This document shows, in pieces, positions 38,148 through 57,141 of a stretch of 57,141 bases of DNA (the first letter of the stretch is position 1; each line of letters opens with the position of its first letter). Source of the DNA: Gammaproteobacteria bacterium (GTDB lineage: Bacteria; Pseudomonadota; Gammaproteobacteria; SURF-13). The DNA lies in assembly GCA_038924245.1 (NCBI GenBank), contig JBCKVB010000004.1, forward strand, positions 1 through 57,141, read 5' to 3'. The notes beneath the pieces are model-generated. The model made no database searches and was not told the DNA's origin. It saw only the letters and a program-made list of their open reading frames with translations. The position numbers and the translations under genes were made by a program.

Positions 38148-38223
<76 letters not shown>

Positions 38224-38387
38224 TTTTTTAGTCCAGCAACATCCAGTACCGTCCGAAACCACTTGTTTTTCAAGCCTTTTCTGTACTTCTCGTGGCTCAT
38301 GCCGTCCAGTCTCATCCATTGACATACCGTCACTTTGACGGTATGTTTGACGGTATGTCAACCATGTTAAAAGGGACATACCGTCAA

Positions 38388-39599
38388 ATGGCACTTTCCG
38401 ATGCGGCAGTACGTAACAGCAAGGCGACCGACAAACCGCGCAAGCTGAGTGATGGGCGCGGGCTATATCTGTTGGTCACCAAAGCTGGCAAGTATTGGCG
38501 TTTCGACTATCGCCATGATGGCAGGCGCCGCACGTTGGCCGTTGGCGTGTATCCCGATGTAACGCTGGCACAAGCCCGCGAGCGACGCGATCAGGCGCGC
38601 GCGCTGTTGGCGGACGGCACAGACCCTAGCGCAGTGAAGCAGGCCCGCAAGGCGGCCACAGAGAACAGCTTCGAGGCGGTAGCACGCGAGTGGCACGCCA
38701 AGTTTTCACCGGGCTGGGTTCCACATCACGCCGACAAGATCATCAAACGCTTCGAGCGTGAAGTCTTTCCGTGGATCGGCAACCGGCCCATTGCCGGCAT
38801 CTCCGCCCCTGACCTGTTGGCGGTGCTGCGCCGCATTGAGGCCCGCAACGCACTCGACTCCGCGCACCGTGTGCATCAAAACTGCGGGAAGGTGTTCCGG
38901 TATGCCGTGGCCACCGGTCGCGCCCTACGCGACCCCTCCGGTGATCTGCGCGGTGCGATACCGCCCGCGGTCGAACGCCACCACCCCACCATCACCGAAC
39001 CCAAGCGCGTAGGTGAACTGTTGCGCGCCATTGCCGGGTATAGCGGCTCGTACATCACCCGGTATGCACTGCAACTGGCGCCGCTGGTCTTCGTGCGCCC
39101 CGGTGAACTGCGCAAGGCGGAGTGGTCGGAGTTCGATCTGGATAAGGCCGAGTGGCGCATACCGGCGCACAAGATGAAAATGAAGGCCGTTCACATCGTG
39201 CCACTGTCCATACAAGCCCTGGCCATCCTGGCCGAACTGCACGCGCTGACCGGCGACGGCAAATATGTTTTCCCAGGAGCACGTACCGATGACCGCCACA
39301 TGAGCGAGAACACCGTCAACGCGGGACTTCGTCGGCTTGGCTACGCGGTGGGCGACATGACCGGCCACGGCTTCCGCAGCATGGCGTCCACCCTGCTCAA
39401 CGAACAAGGCTGGAACCGAGACGCCATCGAACGGCAACTCGCACACGCGGAACGCGACGACATTCGCGCCGCCTACAACTACGCCGAACACCTACCGGAA
39501 CGCCGCAAGATGATGCAGGCGTGGGCGGACTATCTGGATAAGCTCAAGACTGGGGCGGTCGTGATACCGCTGCACAAAAAGGATAGCCTACAGAAGTAA
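38388..39599 (+). CDS. P4-like tyrosine integrase
   Basis: Arm domain (KLSDGRGLYL, GVYPDVTLAQAR), RPGELR, HGFR...H...Y. Confidence 0.96.
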   Translation: MALSDAAVRNSKATDKPRKLSDGRGLYLLVTKAGKYWRFDYRHDGRRRTLAVGVYPDVTLAQARERRDQARALLADGTDPSAVKQARKAATENSFEAVAREWHAKFSPGWVPHHADKIIKRFEREVFPWIGNRPIAGISAPDLLAVLRRIEARNALDSAHRVHQNCGKVFRYAVATGRALRDPSGDLRGAIPPAVERHHPTITEPKRVGELLRAIAGYSGSYITRYALQLAPLVFVRPGELRKAEWSEFDLDKAEWRIPAHKMKMKAVHIVPLSIQALAILAELHALTGDGKYVFPGARTDDRHMSENTVNAGLRRLGYAVGDMTGHGFRSMASTLLNEQGWNRDAIERQLAHAERDDIRAAYNYAEHLPERRKMMQAWADYLDKLKTGAVVIPLHKKDSLQK

Positions 39600-39877: not shown

Positions 39878-40510
39878 TCAATTCACCTTTGGCAGGTCTT
39901 CCCAGCGGGTCGTGTATGCCGGGGACATGTGATCGCGCTTCATCTGCCACGACTTCTTCGCCCCCTCGACGGCCAGCCTGAGCGTGCCGCGACCCCACCT
40001 GGCATTGGCCCGGTCCATTACCTGCATGAGAGCAGGCCGGCCCGGGCTGGTTGTGCCGAACAACACGCCCTGTGTTTGGCCGGCGGAGTGCAAGTCCATC
40101 AGCATCACCCCAGCCTTCTGGTAGGCAAAGCCTGGCCGGTAGATGCGCTTCAGCCCCCATAGTGCTGCACGAGTCAGTCTCACCGTGTCGCTGGTGGCCT
40201 GGGTGAGCGGCACGGTGATCGCCTGCTGATACTGAGGATGGTTTTCGTTGAAGGGATTGGTGCGGATGAACACCTGGACAGCTTCGGCCACCGATCCCTG
40301 GCGACGCAGCTTTTCGGCGGCGCGGGCCAGGTAGGTAGATACCGCCTCATCCAGTTCGGGCAGGGTGTGGATGCAGGCGCCAAAGGAACGAGAGGACATG
40401 ATCTGCTTTTTAGCAGGTGCCAGCTCTTCCAACTCAAGGCAGGAGAACCCGCGCAGTTCCAGCACTGTGCGTTCGAGCACTACCGAGAACTCGCGGCGAA
40501 GCGGACAGCG
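39878..40510 (-). pseudogene. umuC: 5'-truncated UmuC (Pol V) C-terminal half
   Basis: FSVVLERTVLELRG, KKQIMSSRSFG, YQKAGVML, WQMKRDHMSPAYTTRW; the catalytic N-terminus is absent. Confidence 0.88.
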
Positions 40511-40520
40511 CGCTTTTTGC

Positions 40521-40549
40521 GCTGCGCATAATCCGGCGTTATGTTCCAT
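40521..40549 (+). other. dif-like Xer/tyrosine-recombinase site
   Basis: GCTGCGCATAA-TCCGGCG-TTATGTTCCAT vs E. coli dif GGTGCGCATAA-N6-TTATGTTAAAT. Confidence 0.55.
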
Positions 40550-41086
40550 TGCCGAATACCGAACATGGTTGGGCAGGTAGCACCGAACGGCGAACGAAGT
40601 CTGGAACATACGCGGGCGGGAAAGCGTAGCGCCGTGCGGGGACGCGGCAGGCTGAGCGAAGCTGAGCCTACCGCTGGACTCGCGCAAGCGGCAACGAAGG
40701 GGGCCATGCTTGCCGAAGCTGCTGAGGGCATTGCGGAGGTGGCGAAGGCCGTCACTTTGCCGTAGCCGCCGGAGCATTGCCCGGTGCGTCAGATTGGCAC
40801 TGCACTAGCCCGGCGCGATGTTTGCGCATTTGCTTTATGCAAGCAGCGTGACGGGGGGTAAGATGGGCTGTTACTAGTGGAATAGTGAGGAGGGGGGTGT
40901 TCTTGGTATTTTTTATTGGATCCGTAAGTTCTGAACTCATACACCTTTTGAAAATTCTCGCAATTCCTAAGTTCATAATTATTTTTTTCCAAAAAAAATA
41001 TTAGAAATTTCCCTATTCCGCGATTGAATTACTATGGAGCTCAGACTCCATTGATTTTGAGGGGCGACCGGGGGTCAAGATCAATT

Positions 41087-41983
41087 CTAATTGCAATTGA
41101 GCGCTTTGCGCCAACCTGCGGTTTGAGCATCCGTCTCCGAACAGAACCAGCGCTCGCCATGGCCTCTATCAATCTTTGTCTTCTCGTACCAACCGCACCC
41201 CGGAAGATGATATATTTTCTCGCCTGACGAACTAATATTGCCCTTGATCAAACAGCCGGCAAACCCCTGCTCGGCGGGTTTGGTCGGGGAGGGCATGGCG
41301 GACTGAGGTGTGGGAAGCGCACTTGGGGCGGCTACCGGGCGAAACCTTTCACTCTGCCAGACGATTAACATTACGAGCCCGAATATAAGTGCGGTAAATG
41401 ATGCGACGGTGTACTTCATGACGGATGTGTCCTTGATGAGATGCTCAATGGTTTCCTTAAATGATGCGACGGTGTACTTTATGGCGGCATTGTCCTTGAT
41501 GAGCTGCCCAATGGCTTCCACTTGTGCTTTAGTCAGTGCGTCCAGTCGTTTTTTTTCTTCGGCGCTCAGTTCCTTGTTCGATCGGTTGCTCCTTGATCGC
41601 TTGAGCAGCAGACTGATGTGCTCAGCACAGTGTTGAGGGTTGTCTCTGACATCAGTGTTGGCAAAGCGCAATACATACCAGCCTTGCGAGGTCAGTGCAG
41701 ACTGTCGGCGCTGCCAGTCAATAAATTCACTATGGGACATTCCCATGCCCGTGCCGCGTTTGTCATAGCCGTCAATTTCTATCGCGATGCGAACATCGTC
41801 ATTTTCCAGGATAACAAAATCACAATATCGCTGTTTTTTATCCATATCCTGAAACGGATATTGAACTGCAATCGAGTCCAAGCTGAGCGCTGCAACAAGC
41901 GGCAACACATTTTCTGCAAACAAGATTTCATAATCACTGCCAAATTTTGGCCTGTTTGTCTCCAACCATTCATTAAGGTTCAT
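41087..41983 (-). CDS. DUF559-like endonuclease + TM + C-terminal CxIKGN nuclease-associated domain
   Basis: DFVI...AIEIDG...GWYVLRF; TM ALIFGLVMLIVW; CLIKGNISSSGEKIYHLPGC...ERWFCSE. Confidence 0.7.
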   Translation of the reverse strand: MNLNEWLETNRPKFGSDYEILFAENVLPLVAALSLDSIAVQYPFQDMDKKQRYCDFVILENDDVRIAIEIDGYDKRGTGMGMSHSEFIDWQRRQSALTSQGWYVLRFANTDVRDNPQHCAEHISLLLKRSRSNRSNKELSAEEKKRLDALTKAQVEAIGQLIKDNAAIKYTVASFKETIEHLIKDTSVMKYTVASFTALIFGLVMLIVWQSERFRPVAAPSALPTPQSAMPSPTKPAEQGFAGCLIKGNISSSGEKIYHLPGCGWYEKTKIDRGHGERWFCSETDAQTAGWRKALNCN

Positions 41984-42037
41984 TCAAGTTAATCCATCGG
42001 AAATATAAATTTGAATCACTTTAATCTGCTTTCTATG

Positions 42038-42403
42038 TCACTCATTCATTAAACGCAGAAACTGAGGATTTTTGATTATTATCTGTAGACTGCTTTTATA
42101 TTGAGTAATTTTCCCACGTGCGCATGCACGTCTATTTTCAAATACTTTAAGACTGCCAAATCTATCTAAAAAATCACTTTCTTGATCATTCCAAATGGTC
42201 ACGCTGATGTGCTGCTTCGGATATTTAGCACCGAAATTTAAATATGTTCCATTTTTGAAATCAGTAACTTCTTTTATTGAACCACAAACCATTACTGTTT
42301 CTCCCACATGAAAAGCAGCTTTGCTAGAGTCAATCGTGGATTCCGCAGAAATTGCCAAGCATGAAGCCCCCACCAATAAGAAGAAGAATGCTATTTTTCT
42401 CAT
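42038..42403 (-). CDS. Secreted small OB-fold-like protein
   Basis: Signal peptide MRKIAFFFLLVGA; HVGETVMVCG, YLNFGAKYP pattern. Confidence 0.6.
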   Translation of the reverse strand: MRKIAFFFLLVGASCLAISAESTIDSSKAAFHVGETVMVCGSIKEVTDFKNGTYLNFGAKYPKQHISVTIWNDQESDFLDRFGSLKVFENRRACARGKITQYKSSLQIIIKNPQFLRLMNE

Positions 42404-42404
42404 T

Positions 42405-43403
42405 TTAAACCTCGCGGATTGAAATTCGAAGTGCAAAAACCCATGTCGGTTTGGTGTAACGCACCGACTTCGTAAAGAATACCTCAAACGGCGTTCTGAA
42501 CCCCGGCACTTTTCTGGGGCGATGGTTCAGGCGGCGCACTGCTCGCGGCACCTGTTTCTCTGTCATGTCAGTCAACTCCATACTCTTGTGGATATACTGC
42601 ACCATGACCTTTGGGAGTAAAAACGTGCCGCCACCAAGGTAGCGCATATCCGGTAGAAAATCTATCCCTGTCCGTTGCACCAATTCCTTGTAGCCAATTG
42701 GCTTCCCTGCTCTGGCCTCATCTGTGTTGTCTAGCCAGTGCGCCCATGCACGGCGGCTAGAAGGGTCATAGACCAGCTTAAACAAGTGCTGTGGCACCCA
42801 GACCTTGCCAGCGCCGATTGTCGCTGGATTGGCAGCATACACCGGGCCGGTTATCACATACACATCACCCGCAGCACGCATTACATATTTGCGCGTGTCA
42901 TTCTCGATCTTTGCCCATGTCTTGCGGTTATTGATTGGAGCCTGTGGAACAATGTTGGCTAATGAGAAACTCTGTGCCATTGCCTCGTCAGTTCCCATGT
43001 CAGCAGCGGGCGCCATGTGTCCTCGGTCAAAGCCAGAACCCTTGTAATCATCAAGCGTTGCACGTTCTGCCCTGGGTAATCGTGCCTCTTCGTAGAAGTG
43101 GTCACCACGATCAATATCCTTTTCGATAATCGCTCTATTCAATCGTTCAGAGACGTAGATGGGGGTGCGACTTTTACCTGAGTGAAGTATTGCAAACGCC
43201 TCGAAGCATAGCGCCCTTGGCTGCATGTCTTGTTGGCGTTGAATTACCGGGGGCTTGCCATTCGCAAAGTGCTGTCGGCATTGGGCGAAATCATTCCCTT
43301 CCGCGTAGGCCATGTCGGCCACCGGAAGAAAAACAATAAATGCCAATACAACGATGGCAGCTTTGTTCAGGATTCTGCTAAGATCACATACCTTCATCAG
43401 CAA
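42405..43403 (-). CDS. DNA/RNA non-specific endonuclease (NucA/EndA family) with IS30-derived tail
   Basis: Signal peptide, DRGHMAPAAD, SFSLANIVPQ, NRKTW. Confidence 0.9.
   Translation of the reverse strand: MLMKVCDLSRILNKAAIVVLAFIVFLPVADMAYAEGNDFAQCRQHFANGKPPVIQRQQDMQPRALCFEAFAILHSGKSRTPIYVSERLNRAIIEKDIDRGDHFYEEARLPRAERATLDDYKGSGFDRGHMAPAADMGTDEAMAQSFSLANIVPQAPINNRKTWAKIENDTRKYVMRAAGDVYVITGPVYAANPATIGAGKVWVPQHLFKLVYDPSSRRAWAHWLDNTDEARAGKPIGYKELVQRTGIDFLPDMRYLGGGTFLLPKVMVQYIHKSMELTDMTEKQVPRAVRRLNHRPRKVPGFRTPFEVFFTKSVRYTKPTWVFALRISIREV
42417..42610 (-). mobile_element. IS30-family transposase 3' remnant
   Basis: QYIHKSMELTDMTEKQV...LNHRPRKVPGFRTPFEVF...FALRI. Confidence 0.75.
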
Positions 43404-54620: not shown

Positions 54621-54986
54621 ATGACCAGGGCATATACCGCCCCCGCTGGCGTAGTCATCAGGAAATGCGAGAAATTGGACTGTCACCTTTTCTGCTGATC
54701 AGAGCCAAGGCTCCTCCCTCATTCCCATGCTTTTGCAGGAATCCTAACATTAAGGTAACCGTGAGCGTCTTTACGGGTGTAGTGCGCGGAATCGTCTTCG
54801 TAACAGAGACTCATAGGGTCAGACTCCATGGACACTCCCTTGATTACAAGGTATCGGAACTAGCTTAACAAGATTACCGTCCGCACCCGATGGTGCCCGG
54901 CAATGGTTACATTGTATCGGCGCTACTTGTAATGCGTTACATATGCGTTACAATATGTGGGTATCAGGTAGGTCCACGAGTGAAGC

Positions 54987-55181
54987 ATGCCCCCGACAAA
55001 AACCGCCACCTTAAATCTGCGCATTGACCCGATACTGAAGGGGGCGGCGCAAGGGGCCGCCCTGCGCGAACAGCGCAGTGTCGCCAACCTGATTGAGGTA
55101 CTGATTCGAAAGCATTGTGCGGAGGTGGGCATCCCCATCCCGGAACAGCGATCCTTATTCAGGGAGGACGATGATGAATGA
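54987..55181 (+). CDS. Ribbon-helix-helix (Arc/CopG-like) DNA-binding protein
   Basis: TATLNLRIDP beta strand, RSVANLIEVLI helix. Confidence 0.75.
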   Translation: MPPTKTATLNLRIDPILKGAAQGAALREQRSVANLIEVLIRKHCAEVGIPIPEQRSLFREDDDE

Positions 55182-55428
55182 GAAGACTCTGCGCGCCTTG
55201 GTGGATGCGGGCGCTGTACGGCGCATCCGCATCATCGCTAATGGCGCCCGTTTCCACATAGAGGCCGATACCCCGACGGGTTCCATTACGGCCTTCACCC
55301 TCAAGGGCACCGTCAAGACCTGGGGTTCACTGGATGCCGCCGCCAAGTGGGTGCGTTCACTCGGCATCGGCACGGCGCAGCTCGATGTGGCCAAGTGGCA
55401 GCCGGAACAGAAGGGCTTGAGACTGTAA
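55174..55428 (+). CDS. Small mobile-element protein resembling RK2 ParC-like family
   Basis: TLRALVDAGAVR...WGSLDAAAKWVRSLGI pattern; GGAGG SD; overlaps RHH stop. Confidence 0.55.
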   Translation: MNEKTLRALVDAGAVRRIRIIANGARFHIEADTPTGSITAFTLKGTVKTWGSLDAAAKWVRSLGIGTAQLDVAKWQPEQKGLRL

Positions 55429-55569
55429 TGATCCGGCGATCCATTGATGGCCCCGGCATGAAGTATACCGGGGGCCACATCCGTTTTCTCCGTATCCAGC
55501 CGGGCGCGCCCGGAGAGATAAATCTGGGGCACTGGGAATCAATAGTAACCCCGCCTTAACGTAGAACTA

Positions 55570-55712: not shown

Positions 55713-55742
55713 TTGACAAACTCATGCCTTGGGTAGTAGTCT
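55713..55742 (+). promoter_or_regulatory. sigma70 promoter feeding the riboswitch array
   Basis: TTGACA-N18-TAGTCT; predicted +1 near 55749, just before aptamer 1. Confidence 0.7.
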
Positions 55743-55750
55743 GTGTACGT

Positions 55751-55802
55751 AGCGCCGATTTGAGCTTCAGCTTGCGGGCGCTTTATAAATGCGGCTAAAG
55801 CG
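55751..55802 (+). ncRNA. SAM-II-type riboswitch aptamer 1
   Basis: P1 AGCGCC/GGCGCT, loop GATTTGA...TTGC, linker ATAAAT, 3' GCTAAAGCG. Confidence 0.8.
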
Positions 55803-55806
55803 GATC

Positions 55807-55843
55807 AAACCCGTTCTAGCGCGCAAGCCGGACCGGGTTTTTT
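55807..55843 (+). terminator. Intrinsic terminator after aptamer 1
   Basis: AAACCCG...CGGGTTT stem followed by T6. Confidence 0.7.
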
Positions 55844-55856
55844 GTTGTCTGTAGTG

Positions 55857-55909
55857 TCGCCGATTTAACGCACAACTTGCGGGGCGAATCATAAATACCG
55901 CTAAAGCGT
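55857..55909 (+). ncRNA. SAM-II-type riboswitch aptamer 2
   Basis: P1 TCGCC/GGCGA, GATTTAA, TTGCGG pairs with CCGC(T)AA, ACGC pairs with GCGT. Confidence 0.82.
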
Positions 55910-55971
55910 CGCTCGCTTCTCCTCCCCCTGGAAGCCGGCCACGCCGGAAACGCAGGGGAAAGGAGTTTCAC

Positions 55972-56259
55972 ATGTCAAAGCTTGAAGTTGGTGACATTTG
56001 TGTTACGCAAAACAATAGGATGAGTCTGCTCAACAACGGCCTGTTGGTAGAGATTATTGCGATCTGTTCGATCTCAGCTACCCCCTACCTAGTCCACCGC
56101 ATTGATGGGCACCGAGCCCCAGTGACGGAGCACCTTGGAGTTGTAAGTTTTTTCGCGTGTGACAATGCCTGGACGACAGCGCACCGGCTGCGCCGTGTTG
56201 ATCCCGGGGACACTCCCAGTTACGCGGAAGATGCTGAACGCTTGACCGAGCATGCCTGA
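55972..56259 (+). CDS. Small phage-like hypothetical protein ORF1
   Basis: AAGGAG SD; beta-rich N-terminus similar to ORF2. Confidence 0.75.
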
Positions 56260-56269
56260 TCGGAAGACC

Positions 56270-56423
56270 GGATGGGCATCGTCCACTTTTTGCTGATGTT
56301 GTTCAACGCCAGGTAAAACAGCTTGGTCACGGCTTCGTCGGTCGGAAACGAGGCGCGGGTTTTGATCACCTTGCGCAGACTCATGTTAATCGACTCGATG
56401 GCGTTGGTCGTATAGATTACCTT
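56270..56423 (-). mobile_element. IS256-family transposase internal fragment
   Basis: [40 protein letters not shown]. Confidence 0.85.
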
Positions 56424-56512
56424 AGTTAAACGTTTATGCGCGGTGAGGAAATAAACCGCGCAATGACATTGCAACGAGATGCACATGCATCGGAGTGGCC
56501 CACCTTACGGGC

Positions 56513-56571
56513 CGGGGGGATTTGATCCAGATTGCCGTCCCCGACGCATCGTCAAAACGGCTAAACAGGAG
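56513..56571 (+). ncRNA. SAM-II/SAM-V-type riboswitch aptamer 3 (translational)
   Basis: P1 CGGGGG/TCCCCG, GATTTGATCC, TTGCCG/CGGC(T)AA, TCC pairs with GGA of SD CAGGAG. Confidence 0.75.
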
Positions 56572-56578
56572 ACTAGCA

Positions 56579-56899
56579 ATGTCATTACTCAAACCTGGCA
56601 CACTCTGTGTCATCGTTGGTGGCTGCCCAGAAAATATTGGCCTCATCGTCGAAGTTCTTGCCCACCTCGGGCCACGCCCTCCCCGTGCTGACGCGTACAG
56701 CATACGAACCTCCAGTGGCCGGCCTTTTCCTCAGCTATGGGGCCTAGGCGGCCGCCTTGAACGCGGCTACACCAATGAGGCCATTACGGATCGGCACAAA
56801 CTTGCCCCCCTGGTTGATTCCAAGGATGAGTCCGAAGTGCGAAGCCGCGCCGTAAAGCGTGTGCCGGGCAGAAAGCGCGAACTGGAGACCTGCCACTAA
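56579..56899 (+). CDS. Small phage-like hypothetical protein ORF2 (paralogue of ORF1)
   Basis: MSLLKPGTLCVIVGGCPENIGLIVEV; SD AGGAG 7 nt upstream. Confidence 0.78.
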   Translation: MSLLKPGTLCVIVGGCPENIGLIVEVLAHLGPRPPRADAYSIRTSSGRPFPQLWGLGGRLERGYTNEAITDRHKLAPLVDSKDESEVRSRAVKRVPGRKRELETCH

Positions 56900-56982
56900 G
56901 TGACCCGGGGCAGCACCACCGGCCACTAACTTTTCAGAATATACGAATACGGCTTGATCCACCGCCCTCGCGGGGAACGGAT

Positions 56983-57039
56983 CGGGGGGATTTGATCCAG
57001 ATTGCCGCCCCGACACATCGTCAAACGGCTAAATAGGAG
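56983..57039 (+). ncRNA. SAM-II/SAM-V-type riboswitch aptamer 4 (translational)
   Basis: Near-copy of aptamer 3: CGGGG/CCCCG, TTGCCG/CGGC(T)AA, SD TAGGAG. Confidence 0.75.
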
Positions 57040-57045
57040 AACGAA

Positions 57046-57141
57046 ATGTCGTACACAAATGAAGAAGTAATTAGTGCACTTATCCCGCACCCCCGGGGGA
57101 TTCAGGCTCTTCGGGAGGCGCTGCGCATCCAGCCGGAGTAT
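57046..57141 (+). CDS. Hypothetical ORF3, truncated by window end
   Basis: MSYTNEEVISALIPHPRGIQALREALRIQPEY; SD 6 nt upstream. Confidence 0.65.
   Translation, partial: MSYTNEEVISALIPHPRGIQALREALRIQPEY

Follow-up and report, generated by a model that had tools for sequence, protein, structure and literature searches.

The right-hand end of a 57,141-nucleotide gammaproteobacterial contig (JBCKVB010000004.1; the window, meaning this whole stretch) raises the question of why a mobile island should carry four SAM-type aptamers in front of small genes that do not belong to methionine or SAM biosynthesis. Whether these aptamers are functional, what they sense, and which set of genes they serve are considered in turn. 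The features of the region are as follows.

54987-55181, + strand: RHH (CopG-like) gene with weak RHH_5 and Arc-like matches
55174-55428, + strand: 84-aa ORF (p84), which together with the RHH gene forms the conserved left border of the module
55713-55742, + strand: putative promoter, inferred from TTGACA (55713-55718), an 18-nt spacer, and TAGTCT (55737-55742)
55751-55799, + strand: aptamer 1, canonical SAM-II type, with P1 AGCGCC/GGCGCU, GAUUUGA, UUGC, and GCUAAA
55807-55843, + strand: terminator-like stem, read from the sequence as the expression platform of aptamer 1, AAACCCG/CGGGUUU with a T6 run
55857-55905, + strand: aptamer 2, SAM-II type, with P1 UCGCC/GGCGA, GAUUUAA, and P2 UUGCGG/CCGC-U-AA
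55918-55965, + strand: predicted hairpin burying the Shine-Dalgarno (SD) sequence of ORF A, in which CUCCUCCCCCUG pairs with CAGGGG..AGGAG
55972-56259, + strand: ORF A, 95 aa, no Pfam family, 7 homologues
56280-56456, - strand: C-terminal fragment of an IS256/Mutator-family transposase (Transposase_mut E 5e-10, profile positions 319-377 of 379)
56497-56571, + strand: aptamer 3, SAM-V-like, including its SD AGGAG at 56567-56571 (aptamer proper 56497-56565)
56579-56899, + strand: ORF B, 106 aa, conserved SH3/KOW-like small protein, 358 homologues
56956-57039, + strand: aptamer 4, SAM-V-like, including its SD AGGAG at 57035-57039 (aptamer proper 56956-57033)
57046-57141, + strand: 5′ part of a TPR-repeat gene, truncated where the contig stops

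Identity of the four aptamers

All four signature copies located by a sequence-only reading of this DNA are present. The AUUU, UUGC, and GC-U-AAA blocks are invariant columns in the alignment of copies 1-4; in the SAM-V crystal structure, AUUU is the triplex strand, the UU of UUGC forms U:A.U triples, and the bulged U is the adenine-pairing nucleotide (PMC6061858). Every pair of an H-type pseudoknot, in which the UUGC in the loop of the P1 hairpin pairs with the 3′ GC-U-AA, can form in each copy. The stem pairing proposed earlier was right except in P2 of copy 1, where a G.G mismatch at the fifth position leaves UUGC/GC-U-AA and one more G-C pair. The expression GATTTRA..TTGC..GCTAAA occurs at five sites in the whole 1.38 Mb genome (the four in the window and one before metK on contig C23), and a pseudoknot descriptor has nine matches in the genome versus zero to one in shuffled genomes.

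A scan of the window at Rfam gathering thresholds (36 bits for SAM_alpha, RF00521; 41 bits for SAM_V, RF01826) returned two tRNAs and no aptamer. In the proposed check against these two models, run in E-value mode, SAM_alpha matches copies 1, 4, and 3 at 32.7, 18.3, and 12.9 bits and SAM_V matches copies 4 and 3 at 33.3 (E 0.004) and 21.4 bits, all below threshold, while copy 2 has no Rfam match at E<=10. With R3, a model built from 31 aptamers upstream of metZ, metX, metN, or metF in other genomes and free of sequences of the window and the module, copy 1 obtains 79.0 bits (E 2e-22) and copy 2 obtains 50.0 bits (E 2e-13), whereas copies 3 and 4 obtain only 9.5 and 14.3 bits. The scores obtained with models R2 (75 bits for copy 1, 72.7 for copy 2) and R1 (83.3 bits for copy 3, 74.7 for copy 4) carry no weight for the window copies because these copies sit in the respective seeds. 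The core blocks, the R3 scores of copies 1 and 2, and the covariation described below bear out the assignment to SAM-II/SAM-V-type pseudoknots. By sequence, copies 1 and 2 are of the SAM-II type and copies 3 and 4 are a SAM-V-like variant; all four would be expected to bind SAM and to act as OFF switches.

Of 300 genomes of the class, 145 carry the II-type aptamer, in most cases as a single copy upstream of met genes, and both aptamer types elsewhere precede metZ, metX, metN, metF, and metK. In the window, however, the genes behind the four copies are ORF A, ORF B, and the TPR gene rather than methionine or SAM biosynthesis genes, in the gene-by-gene arrangement proposed before. A third aptamer-like variant, (A/U)AUUU(A/C)G..CACUUGC..CUAAACGGGG, was observed at C49:2262-2307, at L018:1878, and before ORF B in the related loci L019 and L041; the “GC” of P2 is kept in some cases only.

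Conservation, covariation, and ligand

Among 19 V-type sequences, P2 pair 29-53 is CG in 8, GC in 8, UG in 2, and UA in 1, P2 pair 30-52 is GC in 12, AU in 5, and GU in 2, and L3 pair 37-45 is CG in 9, AU in 7, UA in 2, and GC in 1. Paired cells make up 97% of the V-type alignment versus 87% in shuffles, and 0 of 500 shuffles reach the observed value. For the II type, P1 pair 5-41 is GC in 9 and UA in 6 sequences, 97% of cells are paired, and 0 of 500 shuffles are equally high. Covariation thus backs P1, P2, and the L3 hairpin. A UCC/GGA pairing (P2a) can also form in the V type; both of its sides are nearly invariant (the SD differs in one row), hence it gives no covariation signal. In copies 3 and 4, AGGAG begins 1-2 nt past GCUAAA, as it does in 18 of 19 aligned relatives, the other having AGGAA. 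In minimum free energy (MFE) folding, copies 3 and 4 do not exceed shuffled sequences in stability, which is unsurprising for pseudoknots but lends the assignment no support.

Such conservation bears on the possibility that the copies are non-functional relics, left behind by leader duplication and IS-mediated rearrangement and regulating nothing. This history would account for the IS256 transposase fragment between ORF A and aptamer 3, for the decapitated aptamer remnants at C23:450-491 and in the related locus L112, and for the leader of aptamer 3 (from ~56425), which is 85% identical to the metK2 leader at C23:2467-2612 and appears to be a copy of it. However, every core block and both helices are intact in all four copies, compensatory substitutions distinguish the copies from one another and recur across Beta- and Gammaproteobacteria, SD spacing is kept, and the tandem leader of copies 1 and 2 is far better conserved than the downstream ORF (in the Sulfuritalea and Rhodocyclaceae loci, ~90% identity for the leader and just 37% for ORF A). 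Decay on this scale is therefore very improbable.

The likeness to SAM-II (RF00521) comprises the H-type pseudoknot, the GAUUUGA third strand, the UUGC and GC-U-AAA strands of P2, and the expected OFF polarity. The window copies differ in scoring below the alpha-proteobacterial threshold of Rfam, and copies 1 and 2 in preceding a small SH3-like ORF on a mobile island, not a methionine gene. For copies 3 and 4 the best Rfam family is SAM-V (RF01826), with which they share the pseudoknot, the ligand-contact nucleotides (structure in PMC6061858), and an SD directly 3′ of the aptamer, pointing to translational control. In contrast to SAM-V, their P1 is longer and G+C-rich, a covarying 5′ P0 hairpin and an L3 hairpin are present, and the hosts are freshwater Beta- and Gammaproteobacteria rather than marine Pelagibacter. 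Aptamer 3 consists of P0 GGCCC/GGGCC, P1 CGGGG/CCCCG, the segment GAUUUGAUCC, P2 UUGCCG/CGGC-U-AA, and L3 GACG/CGUC; aptamer 4 has a long P0 (GAUCC...GGAUC) with the same P1 and P2 pairings.

These departures could mean that copies 3 and 4 sense S-adenosylhomocysteine (SAH) or a sulfonium compound made by a divergent MetK-like enzyme of the module. The sub-threshold SAM_V scores, the P0 and L3 hairpins absent from the Rfam consensus, and the retention of the GHPDK, GxTGRK, and GGGAxSGK motifs by this second adenosyltransferase-like protein are consistent with a new ligand, and close aptamer variants with new ligands are known, such as the spermidine class derived from a SAM aptamer (PMC10853860). 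Nevertheless, the nucleotides that contact the adenine, sulfonium, and amino-acid ends of SAM in SAM-V are all present, and the variant precedes bona fide MetK genes (TIGR01034 at 558 bits) and also MetK in the related loci L017 and L113, which makes a change of ligand improbable and leaves SAM as the preferred one.

Expression platforms and downstream genes

Each unit had been described as standing before an SD or a terminator, and this placement is confirmed, with a stem and T-run after copy 1, an SD-burying hairpin after copy 2, and AGGAG after copies 3 and 4. Upstream of the tandem, the TTGACA of the putative promoter is kept in four of five aligned leaders; a consensus promoter scan of the window region called no promoter. 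The terminator-like stem has 7 pairs and a 20-nt loop, the latter being the reason why a terminator scan did not call it. Its position is kept in the Sulfuritalea and Rhodocyclaceae leaders, and L019 has a perfect 11-bp stem there. In the MFE fold, GCGGCUAAAG alternatively pairs with downstream sequence. Aptamer 2 is near-identical in Sulfuritalea. The hairpin over the SD of ORF A appears in both the MFE and centroid folds of 55854-55980 (z -1.9 for the whole 127-nt stretch), and its segment is kept in four of five leaders; it is predicted with or without SAM, and no convincing anti-anti-SD was found in the folds.

Tandem arrangements of this kind have precedents. Sherlock et al. [quoted passage not shown] Here, however, two to three more single aptamers stand on successive genes of a mobile module. 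The earlier impression that no system of this design had been described therefore does not hold for the terminator-then-RBS tandem but does hold for the module, of which the literature searched contains no description, nor any of SAM riboswitches in defence or mobile elements. Leyn et al. (2014) presented a metXZ RNA element of beta-proteobacteria, consisting of a pseudoknot followed by a terminator and found once per genome before metX/metZ (PMC4239095). It was treated as a new element rather than as SAM-II and placed before metX/metZ only; its position agrees with the II-type aptamers found here before metZ and metX, and both are probably the same RNA.

We consider it likely that the four elements, pseudoknots of the SAM-II/SAM-V kind, bind SAM and work as OFF riboswitches at the front of a rare mobile metK module. 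Copies 1 and 2 would be SAM-II aptamers of the ordinary beta/gamma-proteobacterial sort, taken over from methionine genes and set in tandem: with SAM bound, copy 1 would permit the terminator to form, and copy 2 would then keep the SD of ORF A locked in its hairpin. In copies 3 and 4 the SD starts 1-2 nt after GCUAAA, and a P2 triplex that closes on SAM would be expected to occlude it and block translation of ORF B and the TPR protein. The whole module would be silent at high SAM and opened gene by gene as SAM drops.

The AF2 model of ORF B (pLDDT 81) has a fold that matches L24/KOW, YorP, CAP-Gly, and uncharacterised phage proteins, and ORF A is probably its distant paralogue, aligned to the ORF B family by hhalign with 70% probability and E 4e-5, collinear across 83 columns. 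The description of these genes as phage-like stands as far as the SH3-like fold and a weak PHROG match go, but searches of phage records, plasmids, and IMG/VR with ORF B returned no match. ORF B was likewise found in 0 of 400 other genomes of the class; it adjoins metK in L017, in L113, and in the P0011 context. No informative match to Pfam, NCBIfam, or PHROGs was obtained for ORF A, ORF B, the 155-aa protein p155, or a TAT-signal ORF. In addition to ORF B and the TPR protein, the genes behind the V-type variant include accessory metK, RadC, and DUF3293.

The accessory metK module and its possible role

The last 21 residues of the TPR gene match a 102-bp TPR tandem repeat that opens contig C23. 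The gene and the array probably run on from the window contig (C4) into C23, a join inferred from the TPR repeat common to both. The prediction that the array continues past the window is supported by C23, L112, and L113, which carry further aptamers up to metK. The array of L113 reads II, II, ORF A, V, ORF B, V, 341-aa gene, V, MetK; in L112 these parts are arranged differently, and MetK, MoxR, p155, DUF2201-like, MetK-like, and DUF2779 genes come after them. In both, an RHH-p84 pair precedes the array, and a second copy of this pair (96% identical) lies at C23:22106-22661. Close relatives have five aptamers within 2.5 kb, the last before metK. The common order is RHH, p84, a few aptamer-gated small genes, aptamer-metK, a MoxR AAA+ gene, p155, a DUF2201/VWA-like gene, the divergent MetK-like gene, and a DUF2779 nuclease-like gene. 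Judged by this gene order, the array forms the leading part of a module that is rare, moves horizontally, and runs on into an extra metK operon. In R1 searches of 60 relative genomes, G004 was the only genome of the window’s own family with V-type matches (in a II-then-V tandem); three other genomes of the class gave weak matches, of which two proved to be SAM-II before met genes.

Since the array heads an accessory metK-MoxR-VWA-MetK-like module, a SAM-cycle gene belongs to the regulon. The regulon proposed as non-metabolic is so for ORF A, ORF B, and the TPR gene but includes accessory metK, an extra imported copy. The genome has four MetK-type genes in 1.4 Mb, two of them accessory metK genes (on C23 and C33) directly behind V-type aptamers. 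The C33 gene was considered as the housekeeping metK with a native aptamer leader and rejected; the housekeeping gene is the aptamer-free metK on C9 (60% identity, orthologous to the single copy of relatives, nearly all of which lack the aptamer). By this comparison, the extra aptamer-bearing metK is imported, not native.

The view of the surroundings as a mobile defence island was correct. The island is tRNA-integrated and low in GC (0.48-0.56 versus 0.60 for the rest of the window) and carries MzaB-E and a type II Dcm/Vsr/REase system. Our best guess is that the module would provide a backup SAM supply and helper proteins for adjoining SAM-dependent methyltransferase/restriction systems.

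A more far-reaching proposal is that the module is an alarm that detects phage SAM lyases or MetK inhibitors, its switches opening when SAM collapses. SAM lyases with which phages overcome restriction and BREX are on record (PMC11842806), OFF switches do open when SAM drops, and the four MetK-type genes fit such a role, as does the company that the arrays keep: Mza and the type II system in the window, a different Dcm/LlaJI-type system in L113, and OLD and UvrD genes in the P0011 context. Defence islands, however, gather unrelated cargo, which makes adjacency weak evidence; PADLOC assigned the module proteins to no system and no known defence family, and other loci lie on integrase- and primase-bearing elements with no defence gene directly adjoining. 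The alarm is thus possible but rather unlikely, and the same doubt attaches to its two conceivable outcomes, namely that extra MetK restores SAM for Dcm-type restriction and Mza or that the SH3-like, TPR, and MoxR-VWA proteins arrest growth. We hold with equal reserve the wider idea of a mobile-element SAM-depletion sensor, in which a phage SAM lyase, a MetK inhibitor, or severe methionine starvation would open about five switches together and thereby induce the extra SAM synthetase, a MoxR-VWA-MetK-like machine, and the small SH3-like and TPR proteins, which would either rescue the adjoining SAM-dependent restriction and Mza systems or halt the infected cell.

A riboswitch regulon is one of the few clues to the function of uncharacterised genes that sequence alone can give. 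Here, a SAM sensor would tag a mobile gene set as “needed when SAM is low”: two small SH3-like proteins, TPR, RadC, and DUF3293 proteins, a MoxR ATPase, a VWA-like protein, and a second adenosyltransferase-like enzyme. A mobile element appears to have taken up the SAM-II aptamers of methionine genes and increased their number, to as many as five in 2.5 kb. A SAM-V-like variant, moreover, escapes current Rfam thresholds. Bacterial sensing of phage attack on the SAM pool becomes testable by simple reporters. If the array is indeed a SAM-depletion sensor, it would represent a riboswitch-triggered layer of anti-phage immunity and give the ORF A/B, DUF3293, and MetK-like families their first functional context.

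Aptamer identity at the end of the island

The contig (C4) belongs to a 78-contig metagenome-assembled genome of 1.38 Mb and 60% GC, whose contigs C9, C23, C33 and C49 also figure below. Reading the sequence confirms the four motif copies where the sequence-only reading had placed them. By regular expression, GATTTRA..TTGC..GCTAAA occurs at five sites in the whole genome, four of them in the window and the fifth (C23:2559-2605) immediately upstream of a metK gene. A descriptor combining helix P1, the AUUU strand, UUGC and GCUAA has nine hits in the genome vs 0-1 in shuffled genomes; the repetition is thus not due to chance.

Features of the window
38148-38220, tRNA at the island start
38292-39599, integrase at the island start
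54886-55441, RHH and p84, left-border gene pair of the module
55751-55799, aptamer 1, type II (SAM-II)
55807-55843, terminator-like stem of copy 1 (AAACCCG..CGGGUUU plus six T)
55857-55905, aptamer 2, type II
55972-56259, ORF A
56280-56456, minus strand, IS256/Mutator transposase C-terminal fragment between ORF A and aptamer 3
56497-56565, aptamer 3, type V (SAM-V-like)
56579-56899, ORF B
56956-57033, aptamer 4, type V
57046 to contig end, TPR gene

The tRNA and integrase, a GC content of 0.48-0.56 vs about 0.60 in the core, and the presence of MzaB-E, a type II MTase, Vsr and REase justify the earlier label of a defence island. The stretch from the integrase to the Mza genes (39878-43403) contains a truncated umuC-like gene (only IMS_C and DUF4113), a DUF559-type endonuclease-like gene and one for a non-specific DNA/RNA endonuclease.

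The proposed search with Rfam SAM_alpha and SAM_V succeeds only in part. None of the four copies is called at curated thresholds, and E-value mode yields sub-threshold matches for copy 1 (SAM_alpha, 32.7 bits, threshold 36) and copies 4 and 3 (SAM_V, 33.3 and 21.4 bits, threshold 41); copy 2 has no Rfam match even in this mode. R3, an independent model seeded with 31 met-gene aptamers and none from the window or module, provides the covariance-model match for copy 1 (79.0 bits, E 2e-22) and copy 2 (50.0 bits, E 2e-13), and scores copies 3 and 4 low (9.5 and 14.3 bits). Copy 1 is nearly a letter-for-letter match to the met-gene consensus yet falls below the SAM_alpha threshold, so the type II clade may be under-annotated. 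In a class-wide sample of 300 genomes, R2, a type II model with the window's own copies in its seed, has matches in 145, usually a single one each; most of its best 29 loci lie upstream of metZ, metN or metF and two upstream of module genes. Two further aptamers, detected with the corresponding type V model R1, precede metZ and metX. Across Beta- and Gammaproteobacteria the type II aptamer is common upstream of metZ, metX, metN and metF (class-wide loci L073-L104); it is probably the same as the "metXZ" element, a pseudoknot plus terminator reported in beta-proteobacteria (PMC4239095).

Copies 3 and 4 constitute a second type, which has the core blocks in common with type II and carries in addition a small hairpin in loop L3 and another, P0, immediately 5′ of P1. 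Type V directly precedes two full-length MetK genes in this genome, C23:2620-3819 (TIGR01034, 558 bits) and C33:1384-2559 (three S-AdoMet synthetase domains, seen on its 96%-identical copy at locus L017). By sequence and structure, all four copies are true members of the SAM-II/SAM-V structural kind.

Covariation, ligand contacts and expression platforms

In 19 aligned type V sequences, taken from this genome and from loci of beta-proteobacteria, 97.3% of cells are paired vs 86.7% in shuffles, none of 500 shuffles being as high. The freely varying pairs, which are not demanded by sequence selection, are 29-53 (CG 8, GC 8, UG 2, UA 1) and 30-52 (GC 12, AU 5, GU 2) in helix P2 and 37-45 (CG 9, AU 7, UA 2, GC 1) in L3; in type II, P1 pair 5-41 is GC in nine sequences and UA in six. 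A view of the copies as relics has to be read beside this pairing, and is unlikely. P0 is present at 56497-56513, 56956-56983 and 20 related loci, and covaries (GGCCC/GGGCC, GGCUC/GAGCU, GGCCG/CGGCU), with an alternative longer form, GAUCC...GGAUC, whose 3′ arm could alternatively pair with a loop sequence of the aptamer, GAUCC. No P0 hairpin appears in the Rfam SAM_V consensus.

The AUUU, UUGC and GC-U-AAA blocks are invariant and correspond to the ligand-contact nucleotides of the SAM-V crystal structure, which features a third strand, U:A.U triples around the sulfonium, a U pairing with the SAM adenine and an A holding the amino-acid end (PMC6061858). Judged by sequence, the four copies would bind the ligand; an altered ligand for the type V variant is improbable.

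Each unit occupies a regulatory position, as had been proposed. The terminator-like stem after copy 1 was missed by a terminator scan because its loop is 20 nt; its position is conserved, and at locus L019 it is occupied by a perfect stem of 11 bp. In the MFE fold of this region, GCGGCUAAAG pairs with downstream sequence, plausibly forming an antiterminator that SAM binding would prevent. Copy 2 is followed by a predicted hairpin in which CUCCUCCCCCUG pairs with CAGGGG..AGGAG, burying the Shine-Dalgarno (SD) of ORF A (127 nt folded, z -1.9); no route by which free aptamer 2 opens this hairpin was found in the folded stretch. The terminator-then-RBS arrangement predicted here has been described for tandem SAM-II aptamers (44 doublets; PMC9481103). 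In copies 3 and 4, AGGAG lies 1-2 nt past GCUAAA and ATG 6-7 nt further, the layout of SAM-V for translational control.

Two other forms occur. Decapitated type V aptamers (C23:450-491, locus L013; L112:5165-5207; R1 30-32 bits) retain only the P1 3′ strand, L3, the P2 3′ strand, SD and ATG, and the C23 remnant is in frame inside a TPR reading frame open from the contig start to 1815. A third, aptamer-like variant, (A/U)AUUU(A/C)G, CACUUGC, xCUAAACGGGG, in which "GC" before the bulged U is sometimes lost, is found at C49:2262-2307 (L016, minus strand; preceded by a copy of the 5′ half of aptamer 1 and followed by a TAT-signal ORF), at L018:1878-1924 and, in L019 and L041, upstream of ORF B. 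Decay or a change of specificity could account for it.

Putatively gated genes and the array in other genomes

Neither ORF A (95 aa) nor ORF B (106 aa) matches a Pfam family. The family of ORF B is well conserved and counts at least 358 proteins, and the predicted model of ORF B (pLDDT 81) is an SH3/KOW-like barrel resembling L24, YorP, CAP-Gly and uncharacterised phage proteins; ORF A is probably its distant paralogue (hhalign probability 70%, E 4e-5). The third gated gene, encoding a TPR protein, is cut by the end of C4, and C23 begins within the same 102-bp TPR repeat. The claim that non-metabolic ORFs are gated is supported for these three genes, but the putatively controlled set also includes metK on C23. 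The suspicion that the array goes on past the window is supported by contiguous versions in close relatives (L112, L113, L017), which run to MetK.

Gene order at array loci (II and V, aptamer types)
C23: TPR, decapitated aptamer remnant, TAT-signal ORF, V, metK, MoxR-type AAA+, 155-aa protein, DUF2201/VWA-like protein, divergent MetK-like protein, DUF2779 protein
L113 (five aptamers within 2.5 kb): Dcm/LlaJI-type restriction genes, RHH, p84, II, II, ORF A, V, ORF B, V, 341-aa gene, V, MetK
L112: RHH, p84, II, 158-aa gene, V, ORF B, V, ORF A, M20-DUF3293, aptamer remnant, MetK, MoxR, p155, DUF2201-like protein, MetK-like, DUF2779
L017: DUF3293, V, ORF B, V, MetK, MoxR and remaining module, HD_4 gene further downstream; opposite strand, II-II tandem ahead of a 101-aa cysteine-rich ORF
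Sulfuritalea and Rhodocyclaceae: II, II, ORF A, V, RadC, V, ORF B; element also bears an integrase and DUF3987 primase

The tandem leader is about 90% identical between the window and the Sulfuritalea/Rhodocyclaceae loci, ORF A only 37%. A Rhodocyclales MAG carries three aptamers, ahead of a small ORF, ORF B and bpMoxR, and genome G049 a II-II doublet upstream of MoxR. G288 (5.1 Mb, same class) has ten type II aptamers in five II-II doublets (L105-L109), suggesting several copies of one element; the doublet examined, L079, lies ahead of a gene for a 74-aa ORF A-like protein. Aptamer-gene pairings are reshuffled among genomes, and the units thus behave as cassettes.

Import and possible role of the module

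Four intact SAM-II/V-type aptamers in regulatory positions head a conserved mobile metK-MoxR-VWA-MetK-like module, which adjoins Dcm-type restriction genes. The module is imported, not native. Type V aptamers occur in six of 400 genomes of the class, and within the window's own family in G004 only; ORF B is absent from all 400 other class genomes searched, is found at 29 loci among species genomes and has no match in phage, plasmid or IMG/VR records. Within 56425-56572, identity to the metK2 leader on C23 (85%) starts at about 56425; the start of the leader common to both loci thus falls within the IS remnant or at its end. A second copy of the RHH-p84 pair (C23:22106-22661; 96% identity, inverted) lies near the far end of C23, where it adjoins a UvrD-like helicase and no aptamer follows.

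This genome, of about 1.4-1.7 Mb, has four MetK-type genes (C9, C23, C33). C9:7570-8694 is the housekeeping metK, orthologous to the relatives' single metK and without an aptamer; the others are two aptamer-controlled accessory metK genes and the divergent 357-aa MetK-like protein, which retains the GHPDK, GxTGRK and GGGAxSGK motifs.

SAM-II and SAM-V themselves are known. Their tandems have also been described (149 SAM-II/SAM-V cases; PMC9481103). Full-text searches of the literature gave no description of arrays in which four to five aptamers serve consecutive genes, in keeping with the earlier statement that no system of this design was known; their capture by a mobile element, a non-biosynthetic regulon of SAM-II/V aptamers, and a type V variant that bears hairpins P0 and L3 and is missed by Rfam thresholds likewise appear to be undescribed.

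High SAM would close the pseudoknots, so that transcription would terminate after copy 1 and the SDs of metK and of the genes behind copies 2-4 would be hidden; as SAM falls, the whole gene set would be made. A role in detecting phages that attack the SAM pool fits the neighbourhoods in three contexts, and is nevertheless rather doubtful. The simplest purpose of the module would be a feedback-controlled additional SAM supply with helper proteins.
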